A stretch of 64,000 bases of DNA. It comes from Clostridiales bacterium (GTDB lineage: Bacteria > Bacillota > Desulfotomaculia > Desulfotomaculales > VENG01). The position numbers were made by a program, and so were the translations under genes. Under the pieces are notes generated by a model that had not been told where the DNA came from, ran no database searches, and was given only the letters and a program-made list of their open reading frames with translations. Location: assembly GCA_021736985.1 (NCBI GenBank), contig JAIPEW010000012.1, positions 13,526 to 77,525 of the forward strand, in the 5' to 3' direction. Below are positions 28,273 to 56,695 of the stretch, piece by piece; positions within the stretch are counted from its first letter, which is position 1; each line of letters opens with the position of its first letter.

Positions 28273-28390
28273 TTAAATAGAAAACTCCCTGAAAACTATG
28301 GCTAGGGCTGGAGGAAACCACCGGCCCTCCACCCAACTGTCAGAAGAGTTTTCATACTCCGTTGTGAGCTCTAAGCTCGTGAGCGTTTAA
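28273..28390 (+). repeat. TTAA-bounded element, array unit 1 (118 bp, no internal module)
   Basis: TTAAATAGAAAACTCCCTGA...AGGGCTGG-aggaaacca-CCGGCCCT...TCAGAAGAGTTTTC...GCTCGTGAGCGTTTAA. Confidence 0.92.
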
Positions 28391-28734
28391 TCAGAAAACT
28401 TCCTGAAAATTATGGCCAGGGCCGGGGGATTTCCGGAAGGTAGCGGAGTCTGGGTGCGCTGCATAGCCCGTCAAATCCCGAAATCCCGGCTACTAAGGGC
28501 GTAAAAAACTTGCTGTGTAGTATCATTAAGCGGGTTTCTAAAACATACTTTATGCTCCCAGTAAAAATACGTCCAGCACTCAGCCCATTTCTAATGCAGG
28601 AAAGACAGAAGTAAAAATATACTACTTATAACACAATTTTTTAAAAAGCGCACTGAGTGCTGGACCGGACCTCCACCCAGCCGTCAGAAGAGTTTTCATT
28701 TTCCGTTGTGAGTAAGAAACTCGTGGGGGTTTAA
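28387..28734 (+). repeat. TTAA-bounded element, array unit 2 (348 bp, modules B, B2, C)
   Basis: Same ends; shares one TTAA with each neighbour. Confidence 0.92.
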
Positions 28735-29019
28735 ATAGAAAACTACGTTCTAAAACGCAAATAACAATCTGCAAATTGAAAGGGCTGGTGGATTTACGGA
28801 AGGCAGGGGAGTCTGGGTACGCTGCATAGCCCGTCATTTGCGAAGTGTGATATGGGAGGTGGGAAGTATGACAGTTTGAGGAAGTCTGCTGCGTAGACTT
28901 TTTCTTTTTCCCATCTCTAATTTCCCAATTCTCACTTCTGCCCTTTGCCCTGGTCCTTCACTCAGCAGTCAGAAGATTTTTCATACTACGTTGTTAACAA
29001 GAAGCTCGTGGGAATTTAA
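28731..29019 (+). repeat. TTAA-bounded element, array unit 3 (289 bp, modules A, B, heptamer B1)
   Basis: Same ends; interior homologous to 31081-31340 and 38946-39165. Confidence 0.92.
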
Positions 29020-29148
29020 TTAATAAACCCTGCACAGGATACCTTTAAATCTGCATATGTAAAATTTTTGAAAATGAAGCAGGTATAATCAAGTAAATAT
29101 ATTTGCTGTAAAGTTTTACAAGAAATATTTTGAAAGGAGTGAAAAACA

Positions 29149-29634
29149 GTGAATGAAAAAGAACTTCTCGAGCTGTTGGAAACTAATGCTAATTTGTCAA
29201 TTGCTGAAATATCAGCAATGTTAAATGCTTCCGAGGATGAAGTAAAAGAAAAAATAAAAGAGCTGGAATCGAATAAAACTATATTAAGATACATGACGCT
29301 GGTAAACTGGGAGAAATGTGAAAGAGAACAGGTTGAAGCTTTAATAGAAGTACGTATTACTCCGCAGAGAGAAGTAGGTTATGATGCTGTAGCTGAGCGT
29401 ATATACCGTTTTCCAGAAGTGCGCAGTGTCAAGTTAATGAGCGGTACTTATGATCTGGCAGTATTTGTTGAAGGAAAAAGCATGCAAAAAGTAGCCCATT
29501 TCGTAAACACAAAATTGGCGACAATAGAAGGTGTAGTAAATACTGTAACTCACTTCGTGTTAAAAACTTATAAAAAAGATGGGGTTATTATTGGAGACCA
29601 GGAAGAAGATAGGAGGTTGATGATTTCACCATGA
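29149..29634 (+). CDS. Lrp/AsnC family transcriptional regulator (YugG/AlaR-like)
   Basis: N-terminal HTH, RIYRFPEV...LMSGTYDL...THFVLKTYK. Confidence 0.88.
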   Translation: MNEKELLELLETNANLSIAEISAMLNASEDEVKEKIKELESNKTILRYMTLVNWEKCEREQVEALIEVRITPQREVGYDAVAERIYRFPEVRSVKLMSGTYDLAVFVEGKSMQKVAHFVNTKLATIEGVVNTVTHFVLKTYKKDGVIIGDQEEDRRLMISP

Positions 29635-30875
29635 AAAACATGTGGGAAGAAAAGCTGAGCCCGGTAGTGAAGTCTATACCACCTTCGGGGATCAGGAAAT
29701 TCTTTGATTTAGTAAGTGAAACCAGGGGAGTAATTTCTTTAGGCGTGGGTGAACCTGATTTTGTAACACCGTGGCATATTCGTGAGGCTGCAATTTATGC
29801 GATAGAACAGGGGTATACTATGTACACCTCTAATTACGGGCTTTTAGAGCTTCGTGAAGTAATTAGAGATGATATATACAAAAACTACGAAGTTCAATAT
29901 GACCCGAGAGCGGAAATATTGGTAACTGTAGGAGTAAGTGAAGCTCTGGACCTGGCTATGCGCGCTGTTATTTGCCCAGGGGATGAAGTGTTGATACCCG
30001 AGCCGTCCTATGTCAGTTATGCACCTACAGCGGTGTTGGCAGGGGGAAAACCTGTTTTTATGCAGACTACCATGGATAATAATTTTGTTTTGACTCCTGA
30101 ACAGGTAGAAAAATCGATTACTCCCAGGACCAAGGTCTTGATGATTTCATATCCTAATAATCCAACTGGTGCTGTAATGGATCGTGAAACAATGCTGGGC
30201 CTGGCAGAGGTAGCAAAGAAACATGACTTAATTATAATTTCAGATGAAATTTATGATAAACTTAATTATACGGGGGAACAGACTTGTATGGCTGCTTTAC
30301 CCGGTATGCGAGAGAGAACAATATTATTAAACGGTTTCAGCAAAGCTTATGCCATGACGGGATGGAGAATAGCATATGCTGCTGCTCATGCTGATTTTAT
30401 TAGTGCCATGACAAAAATCCACCAGTATTCTATCCTTTGCACACCAATATCAGCTCAAATGGCAGCCATGGAAGCATTGAAAAACGGGGATACTGCAATG
30501 AAAAAAATGGTGCGTGAATTTAATCGCCGCCGCCACCTTGTATTGCAAGGATTTAAAGATATGGGACTGCCGTGTTTTGAGCCCGGCGGGGCTTTTTATG
30601 CATTCCCTAATATAGAAGTTACTGGTTTATCATCAGAAGAGTTTGCTGAACAGCTGCTGCAGGAAGCCCAGGTTGCAACAGTTCCCGGCAGTGCTTTTGG
30701 AGATGCAGGAGAAGGCTATATACGCGTCTCTTATGCCTCTTCAATAGAAGATATAAGTGAAGCACTGCGGCGTATGGGCAAGTTTGTCCGGCGCAGGGGT
30801 GTATTTCCTAAAAAAGTAAGTACATCTAGCGGCACGGATTTTGTTCAGAAAGAAGGAATTTGTAATAATGTGTAG
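29631..30875 (+). CDS. Class I/II PLP aminotransferase (YugH/AlaT-like)
   Basis: PPSGIRKFFD, YPNNPTG, SDEIY, GFSKAYAMTGWR. Confidence 0.9.
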   Translation: MKNMWEEKLSPVVKSIPPSGIRKFFDLVSETRGVISLGVGEPDFVTPWHIREAAIYAIEQGYTMYTSNYGLLELREVIRDDIYKNYEVQYDPRAEILVTVGVSEALDLAMRAVICPGDEVLIPEPSYVSYAPTAVLAGGKPVFMQTTMDNNFVLTPEQVEKSITPRTKVLMISYPNNPTGAVMDRETMLGLAEVAKKHDLIIISDEIYDKLNYTGEQTCMAALPGMRERTILLNGFSKAYAMTGWRIAYAAAHADFISAMTKIHQYSILCTPISAQMAAMEALKNGDTAMKKMVREFNRRRHLVLQGFKDMGLPCFEPGGAFYAFPNIEVTGLSSEEFAEQLLQEAQVATVPGSAFGDAGEGYIRVSYASSIEDISEALRRMGKFVRRRGVFPKKVSTSSGTDFVQKEGICNNV

Positions 30876-31038
30876 AAGGTGCTTACTTAGTATTTAACTA
30901 ATTTACAAATAACGCAGTACGGGAGGATGGTAGTTATGTATAATATAAAAAATTACAGGTCCTGAATTGTCTATTTTTAAGAAAAAGCAGCTTCAGGGAC
31001 CTTTGGTATGGGGTGAGCCGGTTTAGAGCCGGCCCCAC

Positions 31039-31073
31039 AGCCAGGGTGGAATATTCCCTGGTTATTTTTATTT
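31039..31073 (+). terminator. Terminator-like hairpin upstream of paaK
   Basis: AGCCAGGG-tggaatatt-CCCTGGTT followed by ATTTTTATTT. Confidence 0.6.
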
Positions 31074-31080
31074 CTAGAGG

Positions 31081-31340
31081 TTAATCAGAAAACTCCCTAA
31101 AAGGGGCCAGGACCGGTGGATTTCCGGAAGGCAGCGGAGTCTGGGTGCGCTGCATAGCCTGTCATTTGCGAAGTGTAATGTGGGAAGTGTGATAATTTGA
31201 GGAATTCTGCTGTGTAGACTTTTTCTTTTTCTCACCTTTAATTCCCCACTTCTCACCTCTGCCCTTTGCCCTGGCTCTCCACTCAGCTGCTAGAAGAGTT
31301 TTTATACTATGTTGTGAGCAAGAAGCTCATGGGAGTTTAG
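31081..31340 (+). repeat. TTAA-bounded element (modules B, B1); right end reads TTAG
   Basis: TTAATCAGAAAACTCCC...GCTGCATAGCCTGTCATTTGCGAAGTG...GTTGTGAGCAAGAAGCTCATGGGAGTTTAG. Confidence 0.9.
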
Positions 31341-31381
31341 TTTAAAAAAAGGTATAAAAAAAGCAAGGAAGTGTTAATGCA

Positions 31382-32680
31382 ATGATCTGGGATAAAGAAC
31401 ATGAATGTATGGATAGAAGCGAGTTATATGATTTACAGTTATTGAGGCTGCAGAAAACTGTGTCCAAGGTATATGATAGAGTCCCTTATTATCGTAATCT
31501 ATTTGATGAAAAAAATATTAAGCCTGAAGATATTAAAAGTTTAAAAGATGTGCAAAAACTCCCGTTCACTACTAAGACTGCCCTTCGGGATACTTACCCG
31601 TACGGGTTGTTTGCTGAACCAGTAAACCAGTTAGTTAGACTGCATGCATCTTCTGGGACTACTGGAAAGCCAACGGTTGTTGGGTATACGCGAAATGACC
31701 TGGAAACATGGTCTAACCTGGTAGCTAGAGTTGTTACCCAGGCTGGAATTACCGGGGATGATATTGTGCAGATTACATTTGGTTACGGCCTGTTTACGGG
31801 AGCATTTGGCCTGCATTACGGGCTGGAAAAAGTGGGAGTTGCCATTGTCCCTGCTTCTGTGGGTAATACTGAAAGGCAAATAATGCTTATGCAGGATTTT
31901 GGTACTACTGCACTTGTCGGTACACCTTCATACTGTCTGCACCTGGCAGAGGTTGCGCGTAAGATGGGTATAGATCCTAAGAGCTTAAATGTTCGTCTGG
32001 GGTTGTATGGTTCTGAGGCATGGACTGAGAGTATGCGCGGTGAACTGGAAAAAGCATGGGGAGCATTACCTACGGACAATTACGGTTTAAGCGAAGTAAT
32101 GGGCCCCGGAGTAGCAGGAGAATGTACAGCAGAACCGGGCATGCACATAAATGAAGACCATTTTCTGGCCGAGATAATAGACCCCGAAACAGAGGAGCAG
32201 CTGGACTATGGTGAAGAAGGAGAGCTTGTTTTAACTACGCTTACTAAAGAAGCTTTACCTATAATTCGCTACCGTACCAGGGATATAACTGTACTAAATC
32301 CCGAAAAGTGCTCGTGCGGTCGTACTACAGCCAGGATGCGCAAAATTTCAGGACGTACTGATGATATGCTTATTATCTCCGGTGTAAATGTTTATCCTTC
32401 GCAGATAGAAACTGTATTGATAGATATCGAGGGGACTACCCCGCACTATAAAATTATTATTGATAAAAAAGGCTACCTGGATTACCTGGAAGTACAGGTA
32501 GAAGTTAATGAAAAGCTGTTTTCAGGCAATTTCCGCGACCTGGAAGAATTAGAAAGCAATATTCGCGGGAGGCTGCGCAGTGTACTGCAGTTAAATGCTA
32601 AAGTACGCCTTTTAGAGCCCCATTCTCTGGAACGCAGTACAGGAAAGATCAAGCGCGTCTTTGATTACAGGAATTGTTAG
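31382..32680 (+). CDS. paaK: Phenylacetate-CoA ligase family protein
   Basis: HASSGTTGKP, YGLSE, RYRTRD, GRTDDM. Confidence 0.9.
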   Translation: MIWDKEHECMDRSELYDLQLLRLQKTVSKVYDRVPYYRNLFDEKNIKPEDIKSLKDVQKLPFTTKTALRDTYPYGLFAEPVNQLVRLHASSGTTGKPTVVGYTRNDLETWSNLVARVVTQAGITGDDIVQITFGYGLFTGAFGLHYGLEKVGVAIVPASVGNTERQIMLMQDFGTTALVGTPSYCLHLAEVARKMGIDPKSLNVRLGLYGSEAWTESMRGELEKAWGALPTDNYGLSEVMGPGVAGECTAEPGMHINEDHFLAEIIDPETEEQLDYGEEGELVLTTLTKEALPIIRYRTRDITVLNPEKCSCGRTTARMRKISGRTDDMLIISGVNVYPSQIETVLIDIEGTTPHYKIIIDKKGYLDYLEVQVEVNEKLFSGNFRDLEELESNIRGRLRSVLQLNAKVRLLEPHSLERSTGKIKRVFDYRNC

Positions 32681-32812
32681 AAAGCAAGTAAATTAAAAAT
32701 AAAAATAACTGTTTAGATGTATGATAAAATATACATTATGTGATGAACGTGTTTGTTTAATAGCAGTTTTTAAATCATATTCACTTTGATAATTGTACTG
32801 GAGGTGCAATAA

Positions 32813-34576
32813 ATGAAAAACTTGCTTTCCGGCAATGCCGCTATTGCGCGGGGAGCTTATGAGGCTGGCGTCATACTGGCAGCTGGATACCCGGGAACGC
32901 CCAGTACTGAAATATTGGAGAATCTTTCTCGCTATAAGAATGTTTACAGCGAATGGGCCCCCAATGAAAAAGTAGCCCTGGAAGTAGCACTGGGATCATC
33001 TTTTTCTGGTGCCAGGTCCCTGGTAACCATGAAGCATGTTGGTGTTAATGTGGCTGCCGACCCCCTGCTTACATCTGCTTATACCGGAGTTAACGGCGGG
33101 TTGGTTCTGGTGTCAGCAGATGACCCCGGCATGCACAGCTCTCAAAATGAACAGGATAACCGCCGCCTTGCAGCATTAGCGAAGCTTCCCGTATTAGAGC
33201 CTGCAAGCAGCCAAGAAGCCAAAGAAATGGTGCTGCAGGGATTTGAGATCAGTGAAAAATACGATATTCCAGTTATACTGCGTATTACTACCCGGATTGC
33301 TCATTCACAGGGATATGTTTTACTAAAAGACCCGGTATCCCGGGAAGTGCGGGAATATAATAAAAATCCCCGGAAGAACCTCATGGTTCCCGGTTATGCC
33401 CGCATGCGCAGAATAGACCTTGATAAGCGTGTAGAAAACCTGCGCTTGTACTCGGAGGACACCCCGGTAAACTGTATTGAAGGTTCGAGCAGCGCAGTTG
33501 GTATAATAACAAGTGGAGTAAGTTACCAGTATGTAAAAGAAGTGCTTCCTAATACGGCTGTATTTAAGCTGGGCATGACTAACCCCCTGCCTGTACAAAG
33601 AATAAAAGAATTTGCCGGGTCAGTGGAAAAACTATATATAGTGGAAGAATTAGAACCTTTTATAGAAGAACAGCTGCAGATTCTGGGTATCAATGCTACA
33701 GGTAAGGACTTATTCCCCAATACAGGAGAATTTTCTCCGGGATTGCTGCGGAGTATCTTTGCCAGGGCTGGAGTGCTGGAAGAGGATGAACACAAGAATG
33801 CAGAGATTGATGATGCACCTGCAGTACCGGGTCGCCCTCCCGTATTATGCCCGGGATGTCCCCACAGAGGGGTGTTCTATACTCTGCGTAAAATGAAACT
33901 CAGTGTAACCGGTGATATAGGGTGCTATACCCTGGGAGGTTTACCCCCCATTGAAGGAATAGACAGCTGTGTATGTATGGGAGCCAGCATAGGAATGGCT
34001 CACGGGGCAGAAAAGGTGTCTCCTGTTATGAAAGATAAAACTGTTGCAGTTATAGGGGACTCAACATTTATGCACTCCGGTATTACCGGCCTGTTAAACC
34101 TGGTATATAATAAAGGAACTTCCACGGTAATTATATTAGATAACCGTACTACAGCCATGACGGGACACCAGGATCACCCTGCCACCGGTTGTACCCTCAT
34201 GGGAGAAAAAGCACCGGAACTCGATATAGAGGCATTGTGCCGGGCACTGGGCGTTAACAGGGTGAATACAGTTGATCCCCTGGATTTATCGCAGCTTAAA
34301 GAAACTATCAAAAATGAAATTGATGCTGCCGAACCTTCGGTAATAATTGCTCGCAGGCCATGTGCACTTTTAAGCAAAGAGCCTGTAGGCCCTCGTGTAG
34401 AAGTGGACCTGGAAAGCTGTGAAGGGTGCGGGGCCTGTCTGAAGCTCGGCTGCCCTGCCATTTCAATGCAAGAAGACAAGGCCTCGGTAGATCCATTTAC
34501 CTGTAACGGGTGTGGAATATGCATACAGGTGTGTAAGTTCGGGGCCCTGGTGAAAGGTGGTAATAGCAGTGTGTAA
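32813..34576 (+). CDS. iorA: Indolepyruvate:ferredoxin oxidoreductase alpha subunit
   Basis: YPGTPSTE, SSQNEQD, CPGCPH, GDIGCY, C-terminal ferredoxin motifs. Confidence 0.95.
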   Translation: MKNLLSGNAAIARGAYEAGVILAAGYPGTPSTEILENLSRYKNVYSEWAPNEKVALEVALGSSFSGARSLVTMKHVGVNVAADPLLTSAYTGVNGGLVLVSADDPGMHSSQNEQDNRRLAALAKLPVLEPASSQEAKEMVLQGFEISEKYDIPVILRITTRIAHSQGYVLLKDPVSREVREYNKNPRKNLMVPGYARMRRIDLDKRVENLRLYSEDTPVNCIEGSSSAVGIITSGVSYQYVKEVLPNTAVFKLGMTNPLPVQRIKEFAGSVEKLYIVEELEPFIEEQLQILGINATGKDLFPNTGEFSPGLLRSIFARAGVLEEDEHKNAEIDDAPAVPGRPPVLCPGCPHRGVFYTLRKMKLSVTGDIGCYTLGGLPPIEGIDSCVCMGASIGMAHGAEKVSPVMKDKTVAVIGDSTFMHSGITGLLNLVYNKGTSTVIILDNRTTAMTGHQDHPATGCTLMGEKAPELDIEALCRALGVNRVNTVDPLDLSQLKETIKNEIDAAEPSVIIARRPCALLSKEPVGPRVEVDLESCEGCGACLKLGCPAISMQEDKASVDPFTCNGCGICIQVCKFGALVKGGNSSV

Positions 34577-35150
34577 GCCGGTTGATATACTGTTGGTTGG
34601 TGTAGGCGGGCAAGGTACTATTTTAGCCAGCAAAGTTCTCTGTGCTGCTGCCGAAGCAGCAGGTTTTGATATTAAAATGTCTGAAATACACGGTATGGCC
34701 CAGCGCGGGGGAAGTGTAGTTACACAAGTAAGGCTGGGAGAAAAAGTATATTCTCCGCTGATTGAAGAGGGATGCGCAGATATCATGTTGTCCTTTGAAA
34801 AGCTGGAAGCACTGCGCTGGCTGCACTGGATGAAAAATGACGGTACAATAATAGTAAATAATTACGCTGTTGCACCGGTCCCTGTACTTGCAGGCGTGGC
34901 CGAATATCCTGCTAATGTACTGGAATATATTGAGGAGAAGGTACCCGGCTGTACAATTCTCCATGCAGTGGAAATAGCAAAATCCTGTGGAAATTCTAAG
35001 GCTGCTAATGTAGTCCTTTTGGGTGCTATGGCCCGGGAAATGCCTGTATCACGTGAATTCTGGCAGCAGGCCCTTGATTCTGTTATTCCGCCAAAGCTGT
35101 TGGATATAAACAAAAAGGCCTTTGATGCCGGGTATAATGCCGTAAATTAG
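34557..35150 (+). CDS. iorB: Indolepyruvate:ferredoxin oxidoreductase beta subunit (start likely GTG 34569)
   Basis: GVGGQG, SEIHGMAQRGGSV. Confidence 0.95.
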   Translation: MVIAVCKPVDILLVGVGGQGTILASKVLCAAAEAAGFDIKMSEIHGMAQRGGSVVTQVRLGEKVYSPLIEEGCADIMLSFEKLEALRWLHWMKNDGTIIVNNYAVAPVPVLAGVAEYPANVLEYIEEKVPGCTILHAVEIAKSCGNSKAANVVLLGAMAREMPVSREFWQQALDSVIPPKLLDINKKAFDAGYNAVN

Positions 35151-35271
35151 AGTGTTCATAATATTTTTTCACTAAATGGCAGGATGAATACCTGTCATTT
35201 TGTCTTTTTATGGAGAATAAAAAAGGTTATAATAATAATTAATTGTTGAAATGAACGGGGAGGTTGTAACG

Positions 35272-36954
35272 ATGCACTTGGTAGAGAAAATACGCAAGGG
35301 ACTGTGCGAGTCCCTTGAAGAAGCAGTGAAAAAATCTATTGCTTCCGGGGAACTTCCTCCCGTAGAGATTCCCGACTTTTATATTGAAGTTCCCCGGGAA
35401 AAACAGCACGGGGATTTTGCCGTTAACCTGGCTATGATGCTGGCTAAACCGGCTCGTAATTCTCCGCGCAAAATAGCAGAAATACTGGTTGATAATTTAA
35501 ATACAGGTACGATACCTGTAGAAAGTGTTGAAATTGCAGGGCCCGGGTTTATTAATTTTTACATAAATCCCCTCTGGGTGCTGGAGGGGATACCTGCTGT
35601 TTTAACGGAAGGTGAAAATTACGGCAGGGTCAACCTGGGGAAAAACAAAAAAGCACAGGTAGAGTTTGTAAGCGCTAATCCCACAGGCTTGCTGCACATG
35701 GGTAATGCACGTGGTGCTGCACTTGGAGACAGCCTGGCATCAATACTTGATTTTGCAGGTTATGAAGTGCAGCGAGAATATTACATTAATGATGCTGGAA
35801 AACAAATAGAGAACTTTGGAACTTCATTGGAGACAAGGTATTTTCAACAGCTGGGCTGGAACGTGGATATGCCCGAAGACGGTTATCATGGAGATGATAT
35901 CATAGATACAGTGAAATTGTTTCTGGACAAGTACGGAGATAAATACGCCAGTGCTCCAGAAAAAGATCGGCGGGATGCATTAATAGAATTTGCCTTGCAT
36001 GAAAAAAAGAACGCTATAAGTAATGCCCTGTCGCAATTTCGCGTAAAATATGATGTATGGTTTTCTGAGCAGTCGCTGCATGACGAAGGTAAGGTGGCGG
36101 CAGTAGTTGAACAGTTAAAAGAACGCGGGTGTACTTATGTGCAAGACGGGGCCCTCTGGTTCAGGGCTGCTGATTTTGGACTGGAAAAGGATGAGGTGCT
36201 GCTGCGGCAAAATGGTATACCAACTTATTTTACTGCTGATGCAGCTTATCATATGAATAAGTTTCAACGGGGATTTAATACAGTAATTAATATCTGGGGA
36301 GCTGACCACCACGGGCATGTTGCCAGGATGAAAAGCGTAATTTCAGCACTGGGATATGATTCAGAGGCGCTGCAGGTTGTAATCATGCAGTTAGTTCGCC
36401 TTTATCGGGGCGGGGAAATGGTGCGCATGTCCAAGAGAACAGGGCAGTTCATAACCCTCGAGGAACTTGTGGAAGAAGTTGGTACAGATGCAGCACGCTA
36501 TTTCTTTATAATGCGCAGTGCAGACAGTCACCTGGATTTCGACCTGGATTTAGCCAAATCGCAAACTAATGAAAACCCGGTATATTATATACAATATGCC
36601 CATGCCCGCATATGCAGTATTTTGAGACAGCCCGGGGTAACTGAAGTCAAGGAAAAAGCTGAACAGGTAGATATTTCAAGCCTATTATACCGTGAAGCCG
36701 AGCTGGCCCTGGCCAGGCGCCTGGTTGATTTTCCTGAAGAAATTAGTTTAGCTGCTGGGCAGATGTCCCCGCACCGTGTGGCCCGGTACCTGCACGAAGT
36801 AGCTGGATTACTGCACAGTTTTTATAATGCTTACCGGGTTATTACCAGTGATTCGGATTTAAGTGCTGCAAGAGTAAAGCTGGTGAAAGCAGCACGTATT
36901 GTACTGCAAAATGGACTCAATATACTGGGAATTAATGCGCCGGAAAAAATGTAA
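35272..36954 (+). CDS. argS: Arginine--tRNA ligase
   Basis: VEFVSANPTGLLHMG, WGADHHG, MSKRTG, YIQYAHAR. Confidence 0.98.
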   Translation: MHLVEKIRKGLCESLEEAVKKSIASGELPPVEIPDFYIEVPREKQHGDFAVNLAMMLAKPARNSPRKIAEILVDNLNTGTIPVESVEIAGPGFINFYINPLWVLEGIPAVLTEGENYGRVNLGKNKKAQVEFVSANPTGLLHMGNARGAALGDSLASILDFAGYEVQREYYINDAGKQIENFGTSLETRYFQQLGWNVDMPEDGYHGDDIIDTVKLFLDKYGDKYASAPEKDRRDALIEFALHEKKNAISNALSQFRVKYDVWFSEQSLHDEGKVAAVVEQLKERGCTYVQDGALWFRAADFGLEKDEVLLRQNGIPTYFTADAAYHMNKFQRGFNTVINIWGADHHGHVARMKSVISALGYDSEALQVVIMQLVRLYRGGEMVRMSKRTGQFITLEELVEEVGTDAARYFFIMRSADSHLDFDLDLAKSQTNENPVYYIQYAHARICSILRQPGVTEVKEKAEQVDISSLLYREAELALARRLVDFPEEISLAAGQMSPHRVARYLHEVAGLLHSFYNAYRVITSDSDLSAARVKLVKAARIVLQNGLNILGINAPEKM

Positions 36955-36968
36955 GAGGGGGAAATTAA

Positions 36969-37136
36969 TTGAGGGAAGTTGTAATGGCTTTGTTTACCGG
37001 TTTTGTTATGGGCATGATTTTCTGCAGGCTTAGCCTGCCGGTTCCGGCACCTCCTACTCTGGCCGGGGTAATGGGAATAGTAGGTATATTCCTGGGCTAT
37101 ATAGCTGGCGTAAAATGGTTTGGGTGGGGAGGATAA
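36969..37136 (+). CDS. XapX domain (DUF1427) small membrane protein, 55 aa, absent from the ORF track
   Basis: MREVVMALFTGFVMGMIFCRLSLPVPAPPTLAGVMGIVGIFLGY...; PxPAPP motif; GAGGGGG RBS. Confidence 0.85.
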   Translation: MREVVMALFTGFVMGMIFCRLSLPVPAPPTLAGVMGIVGIFLGYIAGVKWFGWGG

Positions 37137-37144
37137 AATTTTTA

Positions 37145-37173
37145 TTGACACCTCTTTTCCCTGTTTATAGAAT
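37145..37173 (+). promoter_or_regulatory. Sigma-A promoter of pyrG
   Basis: TTGACA-17 bp-TAGAAT. Confidence 0.75.
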
Positions 37174-37279
37174 AGAAAAAGTGGTTTGAGAAAAGCTTAA
37201 ATTACTATACTGGGCGAAGGTATAAAACCTTTGCCCAAAATATGTAAAGACATAAAATAATATACCGGAGGGCTTTTAA

Positions 37280-38872
<1,593 letters not shown>

Positions 38873-38891
38873 ATATTCGACAGATAACTTA

Positions 38892-38949
38892 TTAACCTCA
38901 CACGGGCCCGGCAATGCTTAGAAGAAGCGCCGTGTGATTTTCTTATTAA
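38892..38949 (-). repeat. Minimal TTAA-bounded element (58 bp), unit of the second array
   Basis: Reverse complement TTAATAAGAAAATCACACGG...CCCGTGTGAGGTTAA keeps both end signatures. Confidence 0.6.
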
Positions 38950-39165
38950 ATATCCACGAGCTTCTTGTTCACAATGGAGAATGAAAACTCTTCTGACAGC
39001 TGGGTGGAGGGCCGGGGCAAAGGGCAGAGGTGAGAAGTGGGAAATTGTCACACATCCCATCTCCCACATCACACTTCGCAAATGACGGGCTATTCAGCGT
39101 ACTCAGGCTCGCTACCTTCTGGAAATCCGCCAGCCCTTTGAGTTAAACCAGAGTTTTCTGATTAA
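38946..39165 (-). repeat. TTAA-bounded element (modules B, shortened B1)
   Basis: Reverse complement of the same ends and interior as 28731-29019. Confidence 0.92.
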
Positions 39166-39277
39166 CCCCCCACAGGCCTTTATCTACAACCAGGTATAAC
39201 TATTTTGGCAGCAGATGGGACCGGAGGAACCCCTGGTTCTTCGGTAAGGTGCGTTTTAAACCATATATTTTGATTAA
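39162..39277 (-). repeat. Degenerate TTAA-bounded element, unit of the second array
   Basis: Reverse complement TTAATCAAAATATATGGTTTAAAACGCA...GGCCTGTGGGGGGTTAA. Confidence 0.7.
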
Positions 39278-39298
39278 ACTTTTTTATTAAAATGGAAG

Positions 39299-40258
39299 GT
39301 GTGTTGTAATTTGCAGAGAAAAATAATTGCCAGTATTGTTGTAGGGGTTATGGTGATTTCTGTTATTGCTGCCGGTTTAATAGCGCGAAAATCACCTGTT
39401 TCTCATGATACAAAAGGTGATATTGCTGTAATTAATATAACCGGAATGATTACTACAGGAGGTTCTTCCGCGGGAATCTGGAGCAGTACAACTGCCGGTT
39501 CTGGGGATATAAACCAGCAGTTGCGTGATGCGGCAGATAATACTAATTTAAAAGCCGTGGTTCTGAGGTTAAATAGCCCGGGTGGTACAGTTGCAGGTAC
39601 CCAGGCTATTGCCATGGAAGTAAAAAGGTTGCGCAATTCAGGGAAAAAAGTAGTTGCTTCTATGGGTGATGTAGCTGCTTCCGGTGCCTACTGGATTGCT
39701 GCCTGCTGTGATAAAATTGTAGCTAACCCGTCTGCTCTTACGGGAAGTATTGGAGTTATAATGCAGTTAGATAACCTTGAGGGACTGTATGACAAGCTGG
39801 GAATTGAGCAGCATACTTTTAAAGAGGGAAAGTATAAAGATATGGGTTCTCCTACCAGGAAAATGACGCAAGAGGAGAAGGAAATATTCCAGGAAATGTT
39901 GAATGAGCATTACCAGCAGTTTATTGACGCGGTAGCAGAAGGCCGTCATATGGACCGAGAAAATGTAAAAAAATTAGCGACCGGCAGAGTCTTCACAGGT
40001 ACACAGGCTGTTAGCAACGGTCTGGTAGACAATACTGGTAATTTCTATGATGCTATTGACTTAGCTGCTGAATTGGCCGGTATAAAAGGTGAACCTTCTA
40101 TAACCAGGTTGGAACCTGAAAAAAAATGGTGGAATATGATACAGGGAAAGAGTCCCGCATCTTTAAATACTTCTGGCCTGAAATATTTGCTGAAACATTC
40201 CAGCCTGGCACTAATGGATTTGCCTGCTAATTGGAGTTCGGAGGTTGAAGATGAGTAA
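39299..40258 (+). CDS. sppA: Signal peptide peptidase SppA
   Basis: NSPGG, AASGAYW, TGSIGV, KDMGSP motifs. Confidence 0.93.
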   Translation: MCCNLQRKIIASIVVGVMVISVIAAGLIARKSPVSHDTKGDIAVINITGMITTGGSSAGIWSSTTAGSGDINQQLRDAADNTNLKAVVLRLNSPGGTVAGTQAIAMEVKRLRNSGKKVVASMGDVAASGAYWIAACCDKIVANPSALTGSIGVIMQLDNLEGLYDKLGIEQHTFKEGKYKDMGSPTRKMTQEEKEIFQEMLNEHYQQFIDAVAEGRHMDRENVKKLATGRVFTGTQAVSNGLVDNTGNFYDAIDLAAELAGIKGEPSITRLEPEKKWWNMIQGKSPASLNTSGLKYLLKHSSLALMDLPANWSSEVEDE

Positions 40259-43121: not shown

Positions 43122-43133
43122 GGTGGTGTTATT

Positions 43134-45253: not shown

Positions 45254-45307
45254 TCAAAAGCATCTTCAGTACACATGTCGTTATAATAACCTGGTGTTGT
45301 TTCACGG

Positions 45308-46817: not shown

Positions 46818-46872
46818 TGGTATTTAGCAGGGCACAGCAGCTCTGCTATTTGTTTCTAAAGGGGAGAGGTAG

Positions 46873-49722: not shown

Positions 49723-49762
49723 ATAACCTTTAATGTTGGGTATTTTATACTAAAGTGAAAAC

Positions 49763-49960
49763 TTAATTCGTAAACTCTTAAAAAATGCAGATAACAAACT
49801 GCAAATTAAAAGAGCCGGGGGGGGGTTCTGGAAGGTAGCGCATACCATAAGATCCCCAAAACCCGGCTACTTAGGGCGTAAAAAACTTGCTGTGCAGTAT
49901 CACAGAGCGGAATTTGCTCCGTTGTGATCAATTCAAGACAAGAACCGTTCCCGGTATTAA
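49763..49960 (+). repeat. TTAA-bounded element (modules A, B2; alternative right end RE2)
   Basis: 49862-49902 matches 28485-28525 at 39 of 41 nt; ends CTCCGTTGTGATCAATTCAAGACAAGAACCGTTCCCGGTATTAA. Confidence 0.82.
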
Positions 49961-49986
49961 CTTTAGTATAATTAGAGGGGTATAGT

Positions 49987-51261: not shown

Positions 51262-51407
51262 TTAATGCGCTGCAATAGCTCACCCCGTATGAGCGAATTG
51301 AGCCTGAATTTTAGTTTAACCTGCAAAGTGAACGGAGCGAGTAAGGGTAAAGAGTGAGCGTTCAGTTTTTATGTTTGTATGTGAGCAGATAATAGTGGGC
51401 GATTTAA
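51262..51407 (+). repeat. Possible highly diverged TTAA-bounded element
   Basis: Starts TTAA; ends GTGAGCAGATAATAGTGGGCGATTTAA, resembling RE1; internal TGAACG...CGTTCA hairpin. Confidence 0.4.
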
Positions 51408-51476
51408 TTAATGCTTTCTTTTACATGAAGTGGGTTTATGGTATACTTAACCCCATAGAAAAGCAGGAGTGATTAT

Positions 51477-52544: not shown

Positions 52545-52566
52545 TTTTATTTTTTGGGGGATTTGC

Positions 52567-53115: not shown

Positions 53116-53178
53116 GAGAGTAAAACAACTCCTTGCTGAAAAAATATTTTTTATTGATAGAGCAGGTGAAAGAATACT

Positions 53179-53667
53179 ATGAGTAAAAGAAAAAAAATAA
53201 TTTTTGTGTGTACTGGAAATACTTGCCGGAGTGTAATGGCAGAAGCAATAGCAAAAAATAAGTTAAAAAACAACAGCAGCATACCAGCGGAAATTGATAT
53301 AGAATCTGCCGGTACAACTGCAATGCCCGGCTTGCCGCCTTCTGAAAATGCTGTTAAGGCATTGGAATCGCTGGGAATAGATGCAGGTGAATTTATTTCT
53401 AACCTGTTAGAAAAAGAAGATATAGAACAAGCCGACCTGGTATTAACTATGACAGCTTCTCACCGCAACCAGGTTAGGAATATGGTCCCGGCGGAGTGTA
53501 ATGATAAAGTTTATACGCTGGCGGAATATGCAGGTGTAGGTAATGATGTCCTTGATCCTATCGGGGCTTCAGCAGATGTTTACCGGCAGTGCGCAAAAGA
53601 AATTGAATTAATGTTAAACAAAGCACTGGAAAACTTTATGTCGAAAAAGGATGACAGCAAATATTAA
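53179..53667 (+). CDS. Low-molecular-weight protein arginine/tyrosine phosphatase (YwlE-like)
   Basis: FVCTGNTCRS, DVLDP. Confidence 0.92.
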   Translation: MSKRKKIIFVCTGNTCRSVMAEAIAKNKLKNNSSIPAEIDIESAGTTAMPGLPPSENAVKALESLGIDAGEFISNLLEKEDIEQADLVLTMTASHRNQVRNMVPAECNDKVYTLAEYAGVGNDVLDPIGASADVYRQCAKEIELMLNKALENFMSKKDDSKY

Positions 53668-53734
53668 ATCTAGTATATTTAAAAGGATAAATTTTATAAA
53701 ATATTGAAGTATAAATGCCAGGAGGGAAACTGAA

Positions 53735-54187
53735 TTGAGAATAGTTTTTGCTGCAGATCACGGGGGAGTACATTTAAAAGAGTATTTAATAAATTTTGTA
53801 AAAGAAGACTATGATTGCAAAGATTTTGGGACTTATACGGAGGAATCAGTGGATTATCCTGACATGGCCTTGCTGGTATCAGAAGCTGTTGCCGGGGGGG
53901 AATTTGACCTGGGTGTACTGTGCTGTGGTACAGGTATAGGTGTGTCAGTTTCAGCTAATAAAGTGCCTGGTGTTCGCGCGGCATTGTGCCATGATGTTTT
54001 TTCTGCACGTATGGCCCGCGAACACAATAATGCCAATATAATTACCATGGGTCAGAGAGTAATCGGGCCCGGCCTGGCAGGAGAAGTTTTAAAGTCTTTT
54101 TTGAATGCGCGTTTCTCAGGGGGTAGACATGCCCGCCGGGTAAACAAAATACAGGGCATTGAAAAAAGATACTGCAATCCACGGTAA
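53735..54187 (+). CDS. rpiB: Ribose 5-phosphate isomerase B
   Basis: ADHGG, VDYPD, CGTGIG, AREHNNAN, GGRH. Confidence 0.96.
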   Translation: MRIVFAADHGGVHLKEYLINFVKEDYDCKDFGTYTEESVDYPDMALLVSEAVAGGEFDLGVLCCGTGIGVSVSANKVPGVRAALCHDVFSARMAREHNNANIITMGQRVIGPGLAGEVLKSFLNARFSGGRHARRVNKIQGIEKRYCNPR

Positions 54188-54214
54188 TAAATACGGAAGG
54201 AGCAAATTACGAAT

Positions 54215-55447
54215 ATGGATTTTTCTACACCTCTTAGTAAAGTGGACCCGGAAGTTTCCCGGGCGATAGATCTGGATAAAAAAAGGCAGCGAACCACGCT
54301 GGAGCTAATTGCTTCGGAAAACATGGTTAGTGGTGCAGTGATGGAGGCACAGGGTTCGGTGCTCACCAATAAATATGCTGAAGGATACCCGCATAACCGC
54401 TATTACGGTGGATGCGAGTATGTGGATATAGTTGAGGATCTGGCAATACAGAGGGCCAGGGAAATCTTTGGGACCAGTTATGCAAATGTGCAGCCCCATT
54501 CCGGTACCCAGGCGAATACGGCAGTTTATTATCAATTTCTAAAGCCGGGGGGGAAGATCATGGGTATGGACCTTGCTCACGGGGGACATTTAACTCACGG
54601 GTGCAAGGCCAATATCTCGGGAAAATATTTTGATATTATTTTTTACGGTGTTGATGAAAACACCTTTTGCATTGATTATGACAGGGTAAGAGAAATCGCC
54701 CGGAAAAATCGCCCGGACATGATTGTAGCAGGAGCCAGTGCATATCCAAGGTGCATAGATTTTAAAGTATTCCGGGAAATCGCAGATGAAGTAGGCGCTT
54801 ATTTGATGGTAGATATGGCCCATATAGCTGGCCTGGTGGCAGCTGGTGAGCATATGAGCCCGGTTCCATACAGCCACGTGATAACTACAACTACTCATAA
54901 AACCTTGCGGGGGCCCCGGGGCGGAATGATATTATCCGGTGAAGAATACGGCAATGCTATCGACAAAGCTATTTTCCCCGGTATCCAGGGAGGTCCGCTC
55001 ATGCACGTGATTGCTGCCAAAGCCGTAGCCCTGGGAGAGGCATTGAGCCCTGGTTTTAAAGATTATCAAAAACAAGTAGTTAAAAATGCCCGTGCAATGG
55101 CCGGTGTTTTACTTGAGCGCGGGTATGATTTATTGTCCGGGGGGACAGATAACCACCTGCTCCTTTTGGACCTGCGATCTAAAGATATTACAGGTGCGGA
55201 TGCTGAAACCGTACTTGATGATGTAGGTATAACAGTAAATAAAAATGCTATTCCTTTTGATCCCCGTCCACCGGCAGTGGCCAGCGGTATCAGGATTGGA
55301 ACACCTGCTGTTACTACTCGCGGGCTTAAGGAAAAAGATGCAGAAGAAATAGCCCGTGTAATTGATACAGCTCTTACTGCACCGGAGAAAAGGGAAGAAG
55401 CACGCAAAAAAGTCCGTGAGATCTGCGAGCAGTTCCCTGTTTATTAA
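54215..55447 (+). CDS. glyA: Serine hydroxymethyltransferase
   Basis: [27 protein letters not shown]. Confidence 0.98.
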
Positions 55448-55635
55448 TTGCACATATACGGGGACGGTTTTTGACTTGAATTTAACACTCAGCGCACTTT
55501 GAAGGATTGTGTTAATAATCAGCAGGTGAACATATGCTTTTACTCCTCTCCTTCCTGCAGTGAAGTTATGTTGAGTGCCGGGCCCTTTTGTTCAAGTTAG
55601 TATTTTGCGTTTTAAACTGGAGTTTTCTAATTTAA
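55444..55635 (-). repeat. TTAA-bounded element (modules A, C; RE2)
   Basis: Reverse complement TTAAATTAGAAAACTCCAGTTTAAAACGCA...module C homolog...AATTCAAGTCAAAAACCGTCCCCG...TTAA. Confidence 0.82.
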
Positions 55636-55656
55636 CTTATACGGGAGAAATTTACT

Positions 55657-56112
55657 ATGGAAACCAGGCCTTCCTGGGACAAGTATTTTATGGATATATG
55701 CCGGGTGGTAGCATCGCGCTCTACCTGCCTGAGGCGGAAGGTAGGGGCAGTTGCCGTACGGGATAACCGTATATTAGCTACGGGATACAACGGGGCCCCG
55801 GCTGGCTTGACGCACTGCATAGATGCCGGCTGCTTGCGCGAGCAGCTTGGCGTCCCTTCTGGCGAGCGCCACGAGCTCTGCCGGGGGCTCCACGCGGAGC
55901 AAAATGCCATAATACAAGCCGCTGTCTACGGGATCCCCCTGGGCGGGGCTGTATTTTACTTGACTAACCAGCCGTGTATTGTTTGTGCCAAAATGTTGGT
56001 TAACGCGCAGGCGCGTCGCGTGGTTTACGAGGGCGGTTACCCTGATGATCTTGCAGTTGAGGTGTTTAAAGAAGCAGGTATTCCCCTTGAGCATTTTGAG
56101 AAAGATGATTAG
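55657..56112 (+). CDS. dCMP deaminase / ComEB family
   Basis: [29 protein letters not shown]. Confidence 0.93.
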
Positions 56113-56191
56113 TATATAATGCATATAGTTTAATATCTTGCTATAGTACAAATGAAAGTTGTTTTCTAACTTCTGCAAGGTGGTGCTGAGT

Positions 56192-56500
56192 GTGCAGAAA
56201 AAAATAGTTACCCTGCCCAGGCTCAACAACCTGACACCTACCATGGAATCTACGGCGCTAAAGCTAATGGAAGAAGCAGGTGAACTGGCCCAGGTAATAG
56301 GAAAGTTCCGGGGAATGAGTGGAGAGGCTACGGCCCTGGAAGAGCAAGAAGTTTTGAGACGAATAACAGGGGAACTTTTGGATGTGGCCCAGACGGCAGT
56401 TTCCATGATGTTCGTGCTGGAAGAAAATCACGGTGTTGACATAGAAACAGAGCTGCAGGAGCATATTAAAAAACTGAAGGAAAAAAATTATCTGGATTAA
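56192..56500 (+). CDS. MazG-like nucleotide pyrophosphohydrolase
   Basis: EEAGEL...ELLDV acidic motif; GTG 56192 after AAGGTGG. Confidence 0.82.
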   Translation: MQKKIVTLPRLNNLTPTMESTALKLMEEAGELAQVIGKFRGMSGEATALEEQEVLRRITGELLDVAQTAVSMMFVLEENHGVDIETELQEHIKKLKEKNYLD

Positions 56501-56505
56501 TAAAA

Positions 56506-56695
56506 GTAATACCAGCGACGGTCCTTAACATGAATTGCTCACAACGGAGTATGAAAATTCTTTCAGCAACCATGTATAGGCCGGTGGTACTCGGAGCGGA
56601 CGTGCGGAGGCGCATTCTCCGGCGCCCGAGGCTGATTGAGCTCGGACAATTCTATGTGCCGAAGTAGGGAGCGGAGAACAAAGTTTTCTGATCAA
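56506..56695 (-). repeat. Element copy with unique GC-rich module D and RE2
   Basis: Reverse complement TTGATCAGAAAACT...GAATTTTCATACTCCGTTGTGAGCAATTCATGTTAAGGACCGTCGCTGGTATTAC. Confidence 0.8.

Follow-up and report, generated by a model that had tools for sequence, protein, structure and literature searches.

The window, i.e., the complete stretch of 64,000 nucleotides analyzed here, belongs to contig C42 of a Clostridiales bacterium, whereby a window position equals the C42 position minus 13525. It harbors a T-box leader and a number of repeat units, which are composed of recognizable modules (designated by letters such as L, A, F5, B, B1, B2, C, D, N, and R) and are located as follows:

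10670..10838, minus strand: unit composed of A, a variant of F5, a short apex, and R, with TTAA on either side; corresponds to C42 24196-24363.
25305..25474, plus strand: short unit L-(A-like)-F5-N-R with TTAA at 25305-25308 and 25471-25474; L-F5-N-R at C42:38935.
28031..28249, plus strand: T-box leader, outside the repeat family (RF00230, 104.3 bits, gathering score 93).
28273..28390, plus strand: minimal unit L-N-R (C42:41851), the first of three head-to-tail units 3' of the T-box leader.
28387..28734, plus strand: unit L-F5-B-B2-C-R, which has a TTAA in common with each adjoining unit.
28731..29019, plus strand: unit L-A-F5-B-B1-R, whose L and A are homologous by alignment to an IS110 right end.
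31081..31345, plus strand: unit L-F5-B-B1-R, whose terminal TTTAA has decayed (now TTTAG) and has a TTTAA behind it.
38946..39165, minus strand: unit F5-B-B1-R with the B1 apex deleted (C42 52472-52739); a second, decayed unit follows at ~39162-39275.
49763..49961, plus strand: truncated unit L-A-F5 (decayed)-B2 (part), with the tail cut after GTTGTGA and running into the Q motif (TCAAGACAAGAACCGTTCCC).
55457..55636, minus strand: unit L-A-AGGGCC joined to C, without F5, B, and B2; CCGG at the junction; the Q motif replaces the tail.
56508..56695, minus strand: D-type unit with a short D (C42_70201-), the apex deleted between GAA repeats and the tail cut after GTGAGCAAT, followed by a Q-like motif.

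The three units from 28273 to 29019 are located between the T-box leader and the next ORF, starting at 29149. Genome-wide, the family occupies ~200 loci with 41,199 bp in total (~1.4% of the genome), the longest locus being 835 bp. It comprises 187 units that end in R or R2, of which 124 have at least two recognized modules, and at least 12 module types with sharp edges were distinguished among them. The units are 120-390 nt long with asymmetric ends, their flanks are unique, and the copies sit in unrelated surroundings.

The initial annotation of this region had described the copies as mosaics, in which interchangeable hairpin modules are plugged into one common frame, and the 187 units bear this out. 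The match depth along 28250-29030 drops stepwise at module edges, namely from 73 to 31 at B/B2 and from 31 to 18 at B2/C. Module B was recovered at 28452, 28815, and 31143 on the plus strand and at 39083 on the minus strand (at most three mismatches within the window), which was matched by 0 of 100 shuffles, and the 39/41 identity between the B2 copies at 28485-28525 and 49862-49902 was confirmed. Module C at 28571-28665 matches 55470-55600 on the minus strand only (69/99, gapped) and has, as had been claimed, the same orientation relative to the element, since the element at 55470-55600 also lies on the minus strand. For module A, an exact copy exists at 28751 only, whereas the variants proposed for other copies are partial local matches (29/34 at 49763, 22/24 at 10670, 14/15 at 55444, and just the last 14 nt at 25305). 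Module D, which had been called unique, has one copy in the window but 37 nhmmer hits across the genome. All module combinations listed in that annotation were found, the L-N-R unit at 28273..28390 being the combination without cargo ("none"), and there are hybrid units in addition (F5-B-B1-D3-R, L-F5-B-B1-D3-R2, D5-B1-R, and C-D5-D3-R).

Only 4 of the 187 units lie within crude ORF calls, by which 82% of the genome is coding. The units contain no consistent ORF (reverse-strand ORFs are inconsistent), and no coding signal was found in them. They could instead be genes or cis-elements for a structured RNA, whose variable apical domains would be tolerated expansion segments. In line with this, long nested hairpins are predicted, the L2/R2 subtype shows a compensatory change in the L:R pairing, and many units lie within operons, e.g., between the T-box leader and its gene. 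On the other hand, there is no strand bias relative to co-directional neighbor genes (46 same versus 58 opposite). A search with the Rfam 15 covariance models yielded just the T-box and two tRNAs in the window, with nothing near threshold in 28000-31400, and neither omega RNA, group I/II introns, nor other Rfam 15 families matched the units. Alifold finds no consensus structure in the tail hairpin, and G-T and A-C mismatches are equally common there, so that no strand is favored. Furthermore, the family motif was detected in none of 40 relatives and none of 400 sampled genomes of the phylum, and both the copy number and the tandem arrays are as expected for selfish DNA. We therefore regard an RNA function of the units as highly unlikely, and the "structured master RNA" that had been considered for this region is not supported, given the absence of Rfam matches and of a strand bias.

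IS110-family members are insertion sequences that are moved by bridge-RNA-guided recombinases. One such element is present on contig C4 of the same genome. Its transposase matches PF01548 (N-terminal DEDD, RuvC-like domain) at 91-93 bits (92.7 and 91.1; cut-off 29) and PF02371 (Transposase_20, C-terminal) at 44-46 bits over profile positions 2-52 of 87 only. The ORF of the one assembled transposase stops and resumes in another frame after an A-run, which may be a real frameshift or an assembly error. The left end has ~240 nt of non-coding sequence up to the start codon. Long terminal inverted repeats are absent, and there is a subterminal inverted repeat, in which GAAAACTCC of the left end pairs with GGAGTTTTC of the right end. 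Beyond further fragments at four contig ends (80-100% identity) no other copies of the element were found.

What is new here is that, as judged from the alignments, the common frame of the repeats consists of the two ends of this element. The 3' tail of the units corresponds in reverse complement to the left end, and L plus module A corresponds in the same way to the right end. The left end (GAGGAGTTTTCATGCTCCGTTGTGAGCCCCAGGCTCGTGGGGGTTTAA) aligns in reverse complement with the tails of seven window units over ~50 nt, whereby the similarity ends at the inverted repeat, and the right end aligns likewise with L plus A over ~48 nt; the unit 25305..25474 aligns to both ends. Read in the orientation of the IS, a unit starts with TTAA and the first ~47 nt of the left end, including a terminal hairpin (CCCACGAGC-loop-GCTCACAAC, then CATGAAAACTC), continues with a variable hairpin body, and closes with the terminal ~12-48 nt of the right end, consisting of module A followed by GAGTTTTCTGA, and with TTAA. 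The subterminal inverted repeat of the IS corresponds to GAAAACTC and GAGTTTTC, which form the outer stem of the repeats, described before as their outer hairpin. TTAA bounds the units on both sides, and neighbors in arrays overlap by TTAA in head-to-tail arrangement. The C4 element itself is placed like an array unit, between ...GTTTTCTGAT and TAAACGCCCACGAGC, with TTAA at both edges.

As for MITEs, both termini are common with an IS, and the units are small, transposase-less, present in many copies, and located in unrelated flanks. They do not have the terminal inverted repeats at both tips of a classical MITE, as their ends are asymmetric and the distance of the inverted repeat from the tip is 3 nt on one side but 38-47 nt on the other side. 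Taken together, we consider it probable (roughly 70%) that an IS110-family insertion sequence of the same genome gave rise to the repeats as its non-autonomous, MITE-like derivatives. The three bases between TTAA and GAAAAC vary by subfamily (TCA, ATA, TTC, TTA, TAA, and CAC), thus a single donor guide would not match all subfamilies, and for the R2/L2 subfamily no matching IS was found in the assembly. In the analysis, which covered the contigs of a single DNA run as well as the 40 relatives and 400 phylum genomes devoid of the motif, none of the units showed an empty site or a presence/absence polymorphism.

A comparison of the repeats with bridge RNA had been recommended. The frame indeed corresponds to IS110-family ends, but the modules are not the bridge RNA region. 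For the left end of the C4 element, where a bridge RNA might be encoded, Rfam gave no match, and the single-sequence fold is weak (z = -1.35). Of 6 aligned IS left ends, 4 have a conserved TGGTGG-variable-CCCTGT segment in common, whereby GATTAAAC and GGTTTAA of this segment match the two strands of the junction between right end and left end.

The similarity between units and IS could also come about if the repeat family were a preferred landing site, so that the IS110 copy would be lodged within a repeat lacking a body, and its apparent ends would be flanks. Precedents are IS621, for which REPs play this part, ISPpu9, an IS110-family element likewise reported to insert into REPs (PMC12288879), and IS1111, for which 20 of 21 copies are described to be located in QMITE2 (PMC5896051). 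Moreover, the assembled left ends at C4 and C29 both join the tail at the same point, and to the right of non-tandem units the flanks look like the beginning of L (T in 72%, then A-rich); thus, the elements tend to land beside one another. However, the terminal hairpin, CATGAAAA, and a matching inverted repeat are also present in related ISs of unrelated hosts, namely on a metagenome contig of high GC content and on a plasmid of Geobacillus. In the metagenome data the tail motif was matched just once, at 199-232 nt upstream of an IS110 transposase (45% identity to the C4 transposase) and on the strand opposite to it. The Geobacillus IS (51.6% identical) has the same terminal hairpin and CATGAAAATCCCC as well as a matching GGGGATTTTC near its right end. 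Plasmids with the empty site match both IS flanks up to the terminal hairpin and the right-end point, respectively, and a second Geobacillus copy begins and ends at the same points as the first. The left-end hairpin therefore lies inside the IS, as does the inverted repeat, and the tail appears to be intrinsic to this IS subgroup. In addition, the body-less tail-A-L repeat required for a landing site was seen in 0 of 187 units, and the similarity between IS right end and L plus A extends over ~48 nt. A landing-site origin is thus unlikely.

With regard to the origin of the mosaic, the initial annotation had proposed either shuffling of modules or structure-guided deletion from one long master element. 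A single linear order, L-A-F5-B-B2-C-D5-B1-E-D3-N-R, fits 124 of 124 multi-module units with no conflict, hence the module order is not shuffled. Breakpoints are non-random and are located at hairpin bases, where short direct repeats are found at many junctions (GGAGTCT, TTTGC/GCCC, GGCCTC, TCCGCTCC, CCGG(C), CCAGG(G)CCGGTGG, and ACCACCGGCC). Most of the interior differences are such that nested hairpin segments between these short repeats are either present or absent, as is typical of slipped-strand deletion. The repeats support structure-guided deletion, but a full master copy carrying all modules does not occur among the genome-wide copies, and B1 is never found in the same unit as B2, C, E, or N (124 multi-module units). 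In a few chimeras the halves of two body types (F5-type and D-type) meet at the common B1 hairpin, which requires either a nested master or recombination through common modules. Both F5 T/G variants occur with either cargo (13 and 9 units with B1, 8 and 8 units with B2). Just 2 of the 39 inner branches of the frame tree are well supported, so that the tree is hardly resolved. Cargo changes 8 times on it compared to 13.2 times in shuffles, and the tree does not separate few old events from repeated exchange.

It could also be that the modules are small, independently mobile hairpin elements, which became nested by insertion into one another, as the earlier annotation had allowed. In favor of this, the B plus B2 block is flanked by the 7-bp GGAGTCT exactly like a target duplication, as if the block had entered the short form of the unit, and B1 is found at the apex of two different host hairpins. 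Yet 16 of 19 inspected apparent solo modules are located within decayed or truncated frames, and of the other three, one is half a B1 hairpin next to a short remnant resembling R, and two are B1-like hairpins located in tRNA and rRNA spacers. No module with its own variable flanking duplication was seen at unrelated sites. In the D context B1 is not added but replaces 28 nt and brings along CGTCA from B, and the junction repeats (3-12 nt) differ by module, unlike the product of one insertion mechanism. We thus consider nested insertion quite improbable.

The genome also contains four genes that match NF047646 (REP-associated tyrosine transposase) at 62-81 bits (cut-off 80), and the Q motif flanks one of these RAYT-like genes and adjoins ~10 truncated tails. 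Since BIMEs are described as classical mosaics (PMC2817692), the repeats might represent a REP/BIME-type system spread by one of these four Y1 transposases, and like REP/BIME and REPIN-RAYT systems they are high-copy intergenic palindromic mosaics in a genome with RAYT-like genes (PMC2817692, PMC3116915). However, each RAYT-like gene has its own, different short flanking motif, with L or tail at none of them. The units are also far longer than tagged palindromes of 20-40 nt and asymmetric, and both of their ends match the IS110 element instead. Thus, a RAYT-driven origin has hardly any likelihood.

Among known systems, the closest parallels concern IS110-type elements. MITEPpu9 is described as a MITE-like element of ISPpu9 in Pseudomonas putida that adjoins IS copies and occurs elsewhere in the genome, whereby arrays allow "modular" circles (PMC12288879). 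Like the repeats described here, it is transposase-less and flanked by sequences resembling left and right IS110-family ends, and use of the IS machinery in trans has been proposed for it (PMC12288879). It is reported in 8 copies of one form with an sRNA gene (PMC12288879), in contrast to the ~187 units here, which come in many body types with nested hairpins, are bounded by TTAA, and form long head-to-tail arrays, and whose mobility we infer. The C4 element resembles the IS110/IS1111 bridge-RNA (seekRNA) elements such as IS621 in its DEDD recombinase domains, its long non-coding left end, its subterminal inverted repeats, a short core that recurs on either side, and an apparent target specificity (PMC11208160, PMC11208158, PMC11187229). 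The units differ from such elements in being devoid of the recombinase and of the left-end non-coding RNA region, and unlike in IS621 the core appears to be TTAA instead of CT and the inverted repeat is set 38-47 nt inward at the left end. Similar to QMITE2 of Coxiella burnetii, the repeat family is physically tied to an IS110/IS1111-type element, but QMITE2 is described as the insertion target of IS1111 (PMC5896051), whereas the repeat here carries the IS's own ends.

Judged by architecture, the units have conserved, pairing end modules with variable internal modules, as is described for the composite BOX repeats of Streptococcus pneumoniae and S. suis (PMC3049150). In S. suis two frames (boxA-boxC and boxE-boxF) are reported around the same boxB (PMC3049150), comparable to B1 in both F5-type and D-type frames. 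According to the same source, BOX varies mainly in tandem boxB number and has terminal inverted repeats with target duplications (PMC3049150); the modules described here are nested alternatives, single-copy per unit, in a frame that matches an IS110 element.

For the derivation from the IS110 element, we infer the following scenario. The IS-encoded DEDD recombinase together with its non-coding RNA would move the units in trans, which might be feasible because just a short donor sequence around the core is needed; for IS621, recombination is reported to be supported by a 22-bp donor with the bridge RNA given in trans (PMC11208160). The units would land beside one another at TTAA and in this way build head-to-tail arrays, whereas their interior may vary because it would not be needed for mobility. 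Most interior differences would arise from nested hairpin segments being lost or kept between short direct repeats, loss being the presumed direction of change, and additional recombination between copies may have occurred via common modules, e.g., B1 joining F5-type and D-type halves. The units thus resemble a natural example of short donor ends that are spread by an IS110 bridge-RNA-guided recombinase. A more speculative and rather doubtful extension is that they constitute a self-seeding system rather than decayed IS copies alone, in which the bridge-RNA recombinase would target TTAA together with sequence resembling its own right end. If so, each inserted unit would create the next landing site, every junction between head-to-tail units would have the layout of the circular intermediate's donor junction (right end-TTAA-left end), and the two ends would be brought close to each other as the long bodies fold back. 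The units and arrays in the chromosome would thereby serve as a permanent stock of donors and targets, which would expand, contract, and swap units.

An iterative search of the whole genome (2.84 Mb in 65 contigs, 39% G+C) identified about 200 loci of the gene-less repeat, which amount to 41,199 bp in total, whereby the longest locus measures 835 bp. In each copy, hereafter called a unit, a start (L) and a tail (R) frame hairpin segments designated as modules A, F5, B, B2, C, D5, B1, E, D3, and N, whereas L2 and R2 denote a variant subfamily. Modules were counted by profile searches of the genome, in which the short segments L, B, N, and E were probably under-detected.

Profile matches in the genome
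R tails: 175
R2 tails: 12
F5: 93
B: 75
N: 54
B1: 53
D3: 44
D5: 40
L: 37
B2: 36
A: 23
C: 23
E: 16

Altogether, 187 units end in R or R2, and at least two recognised modules were found in 124 of them. The 63 single-module units consist of R alone (60) or R2 alone (3). Inspection of the 60 R-alone units revealed decayed copies as well as at least two further body types that have only the tail in common with the others.

Main architectures
(L/A)-F5-B-B1-R: 34 units
D5-(E)-D3-R or -R2: 22 units
(L)-F5-B-B2-N-R: 11 units
architectures with B2-C: about 10 units

At least one further body type is a long hairpin with ...AAGTTTGGCAGCTGTTCGGTTCAAGTCGCTC... and TAGTTTGGCCTGCAAAGTGAACGGAGCG, which agrees with the family in the terminal ~45 nt of the tail only. 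Since it has only the tail in common, the superfamily is wider than the modules first named. Examples, given by contig of the same assembly and position, are the following.

Copies of the further long-hairpin body type (among others)
C42:79079 (contig of the window)
C44:134522
C37:20170
C4:92400
C9:2996
C51:445
C58:20806

By crude ORF calls, which mark 82% of the genome as coding, 4 of the 187 units lie within ORFs, so that the units are almost all intergenic, and their orientation towards neighbouring genes is unbiased (46 same, 58 opposite). At window positions 28031-29149, three head-to-tail units with ~750 nt of strong hairpins lie between a T-box leader (RF00230, 104.3 bits) and the next ORF (start 29149); read-through transcripts from the leader would have to cross all three.

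The initial annotation had described the copies in the window as mosaics of interchangeable modules. The sharp module edges are real, as the genome-wide match depth of 28250-29030 steps exactly at them. Module B recurs in four copies at up to 3 mismatches, with 0 matches in shuffled sequence, and the two B2 copies (28485-28525 and 49862-49902) are identical at 39/41 positions. The counterpart of module C at 55470-55600 is found on the minus strand only (69/99 with gaps), where the element also lies on the minus strand. Module A is present exactly at 28751 only, whereas its supposed variants are partial local matches (29/34, 22/24, 14/15), the one at 25305 covering the last 14 nt only. Module D, which had been called unique in the window, is indeed single there but has 37 matches genome-wide.

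For analysis of module order, modules were chained by adjacency alone with no order imposed, and the chains were then compared with the order L-A-F5-B-B2-C-D5-B1-E-D3-N-R. In this comparison, which the initial annotation had proposed, the one linear order fits 124/124 multi-module units. Since there is not a single conflict, module order is not shuffled, and the suggested active shuffling is not supported; the "combinatorial" look of the units is real but collinear. Among the 124 multi-module units, B1 never occurs together with B2, C, E, or N, and F5 never together with D5, while F5 and D3 are combined in two units. The other suggestion, structure-guided deletions from one long master, is supported by short direct repeats at the hairpin bases that form the module edges, but none of the 124 units approaches a full "master". 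Thus, GGAGTCT stands on either side of the B+B2 block and in a single copy in the short form F5-N; B1 is bracketed by TTTGC and GCCC, and F5-B-R copies read ...GTCATTTGC|CCCGG. The D apex is bracketed by GGCCTC, of which one copy is left in short D forms, and TCCGCTCC is found on both D arms but once in two minimal D forms. CCGG is present at the junction of the window copy 55457-55636. Furthermore, F5 and D5 have the common start CCAGG(G)CCGGTGG, and N and D3 the common end ACCACCGGCC. Judged from the sequences, such junction repeats are what slipped-strand deletion across hairpins is expected to leave, and they would also offer microhomology for exchange between copies.

Chimeric units were found as F5-B-B1-D3-R, L-F5-B-B1-D3-R2, B1-D3-R, D5-B1-R, and C-D5-D3-R. 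Where B1 lies in the D context, it takes the place of 28 nt and carries CGTCA along from B. Since the four-gamete counts rest mostly on transitions, they are weak, and one T/G site in F5 alone is telling; it is seen in both states with both cargos (B1 in 13 units with T and 9 with G, B2 in 8 and 8). The frame is too short to resolve a tree (2/39 inner branches well supported). Mapped on this tree, the cargo changes 8 times compared to 13.2 times in shuffles, of which 3-4/500 were as low. There is some subfamily growth, and the tree fits a few old events and repeated exchange alike.

Nested insertion of independent modules, which had also been considered, found no evidence among the 19 apparent solo modules inspected. 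Sixteen of them belong to decayed or truncated frames, in which L stands upstream and an R remnant or motif Q, a separate short motif adjoining some cut-off tails, downstream; one is half a B1 hairpin adjoining a short R-like remnant. The other two are B1-like purine-rich hairpins, which may reflect low-complexity resemblance or a common origin with processing stems.

C46:30005-30108, B1-like hairpin between two tRNA genes
C65:197-233, B1-like hairpin in a 5S-23S rRNA spacer

Every unit starts with TTAA-NNN-GAAAAC(T)... and ends with ...AGAGTTTTCAT-N5-GTTGTGAGC-N5-GCTCGTGG-N3-TTTAA. In arrays, neighbouring units have one TTAA in common, and the three bases adjoining TTAA vary among subfamilies. 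The tail is conserved as sequence rather than structure: one covarying pair only was detected (A-T to G-C, 92 vs 14), no strand asymmetry was seen, and alifold yielded no consensus structure for the tail. Reverse-strand coding was rejected, as the ORFs that start at an ATG in the tail range from 6 to 105 aa and have inconsistent ends. A match to catalogued RNA families was not obtained either; at gathering and permissive thresholds, Rfam returned only the T-box and two tRNAs for the window and for 28000-31400, and nothing for the family itself.

The tail motif was found in 0/400 sampled genomes of the phylum, compared to 71 matches in its own genome and 0 for a reversed control, and the whole short unit in 0/40 relatives. 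A 20-mer of the F5 core, searched in one genome per species, gave two single matches, which we took as chance. A lake-water metagenome DNA run contains the stretch in its assembled contigs (share 0.88), whereby the "joints" against 25000-40000 are other genomic repeat copies and not population variants. No RNA run was listed as containing the stretch.

In ~10 units, motif Q (GAGCAATTCAAGTCAAGAACCGTCCCC) stands in place of the distal tail half after GTTGTGAGCAA. It occurs at 29 places genome-wide, including an inverted cluster at C58:10373-10460, and may be a REP inserting into, or recombining with, the tail hairpin loop.

Motif Q in the window
49920-49961
55457-55487, minus strand
56508-56540, minus strand

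Other transposon systems of the genome were considered as the source of the units. IS605-type (tnpA and tnpB) and IS607-type (serine recombinase and tnpB) elements are present, with 12 TnpB matches in all, and at C37:199/200 one of the copies directly adjoins a repeat tail. An IS200/IS605 origin was rejected, as the tnpA/tnpB elements end in ...GTAGTTGAC or ...GTAGTTCAC and have nothing in common with L or the tail.

IS605/IS607-type elements (among others), right ends GTAGTTGAC or GTAGTTCAC
C36:33509-34975
C8:3700-5400
C49:685-1100

A system of REP/BIME repeats and a RAYT (REP-associated tyrosine transposase) was likewise rejected. Four RAYT-like Y1 transposase genes were identified (NF047646, 62-81 bits at a cut-off of 80), one with a weak DnaA-type HTH match C-terminally, and they are bordered by other motifs. 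Their loci show the classical RAYT layout, with low-copy repeats that are unrelated to the main family.

RAYT-like genes
C59:96239-97015, minus strand, GGGGACGGTTCTTTTGTC related motifs on both sides
C1:44967-45914, plus strand, only a downstream motif Q seen
C33:1915-2739, minus strand, GACAAGGGGACGGGG related motifs on both sides
C39:14428-15297, minus strand, AATAAGTAAAAAAATGTGCC palindrome, related motifs on both sides

A scan of metagenome contigs for the tail motif yielded a single match, on contig L038, located 199-232 nt upstream of a 336-aa ORF and on the other strand; this ORF contains PF01548 and PF02371 and is an IS110-family transposase. IS110-family genes are also present in the genome under study, whereby the copy on contig C4 is 45% identical at the protein level to the L038 transposase. 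The left end of the C4 IS starts with TAAACCCCCACGAGCCTGGGGCTCACAACGGAGCATGAAAACTCC, the reverse complement of the tail, and its right end finishes with ...CGTTTTAAACCGGAGTTTTCTGAT, the reverse complement of L preceded by module A. The left end is similar to the units over ~50 nt and the right end over ~48 nt, whereby the similarity stops at the inverted repeat GAAAACTC/GAGTTTTC. The IS is placed like an array unit, with another L end on one side and another tail on the other. It carries the sole assembled transposase gene of this type, which is split by a frameshift in an A-run; further IS fragments of 80-100% identity lie at four contig ends, on C29, C33, C39, and C46. An IS matching the L2/R2 subfamily, in which the inverted repeat is changed on both sides, was not found in the assembly. 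A second, unrelated IS110-family element type has a different left end (GGAGCATTCCTGTAATGAAATA...) and several copies, which break the assembly.

Second IS110-family element type
C35:18310-19368
C32:87983-88255
C57:8-280

The preferred reading of the units is a modular offshoot, non-autonomous and present in many copies, of an IS110-family element, and we put the probability that they are non-autonomous derivatives of it at roughly 70%. According to two reports, IS110-type elements often insert into repeats (PMC5896051; PMC12288879), and for this reason the units could simply be the target of the IS and not its derivative. We regard this as quite unlikely, because the terminal hairpin, CATGAAAA, and the matching inverted repeat are also present in related ISs of unrelated hosts, namely in L038 and in a Geobacillus plasmid IS that is 51.6% identical to the C4 IS. 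At the empty site of the latter in two plasmids, the left flank is matched up to position 627 of its locus (L048) and the right flank starting at 2198, with the two matches separated by 10 nt; a further Geobacillus IS copy aligns with positions 621-799 and up to 2180. Both the hairpin and the inverted repeat thus belong to the inside of the IS. Moreover, no body-less tail-A-L repeat, as a target would require, was detected in the set of 187 units. On other plasmids, of Geobacillus thermodenitrificans, Geobacillus sp. CX412, and Parageobacillus toebii, the initial ~48 nt of the Geobacillus IS left end, comprising the hairpin and CATGAAAATCC, stand by themselves, so that this lineage may likewise contain remnants of the tail only or small derivatives.

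As derivatives, the units keep only the IS ends, bounded by TTAA and arranged head to tail. According to PMC11208160, a 22-bp donor with the bridge RNA in trans suffices for IS621 to recombine, and subterminal inverted repeats are present in IS1111-type elements. By analogy, the units would be moved in trans by the IS recombinase together with its left-end RNA. The IS left end contains an extended -10 sequence (TGCTATAAT) and a TGGTGG-variable-CCCTGT segment that is kept in 4/6 aligned IS left ends, within which GATTAAAC and GGTTTAA match the two strands of the right-end|left-end junction; these features are hints of a candidate left-end RNA. A single-sequence fold of this non-coding region was uninformative, Rfam gave nothing on the IS locus at gathering or permissive thresholds, and phmmer gave no match of the transposase to PDB sequences. 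The target would resemble the right end of the element itself. Such a target would account for the arrays and fits the right flanks of non-tandem units, which are similar to the beginning of L, with T in 72% followed by an A-rich stretch. The unit interior would be free to vary, and deletion as well as exchange at short repeats would produce the mosaic.

Among described cases, MITEPpu9, a non-autonomous IS110-family relative beside ISPpu9, comes closest; PMC12288879 gives 8 copies for it, compared to ~190 units here. It was the only IS110-derived MITE that turned up in our literature searches, and others may be in print. BOX elements have a similar layout, and the occurrence of B1 in F5-type and D-type frames follows the same logic as boxB of S. 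suis, which is described inside two different frames (PMC3049150). The IS110 ends would provide this BOX-like family of modular repeats with a concrete origin; its "combinatorial" look can arise when segments are lost and exchanged in collinear fashion at short repeats at the hairpin bases, and no dedicated shuffling machinery is required. IS110-type recombinases are under development as programmable genome-writing tools, and to our knowledge little is known about their natural behaviour beyond single IS copies. For research on bridge-RNA recombinases and bacterial repeats, this genome would provide ~190 natural donors with varied ends and interiors, plus their insertion sites, and thereby address the range of donor and target sequences accepted by one enzyme, the portion of the element ends that is really required, and the formation of tandem arrays.
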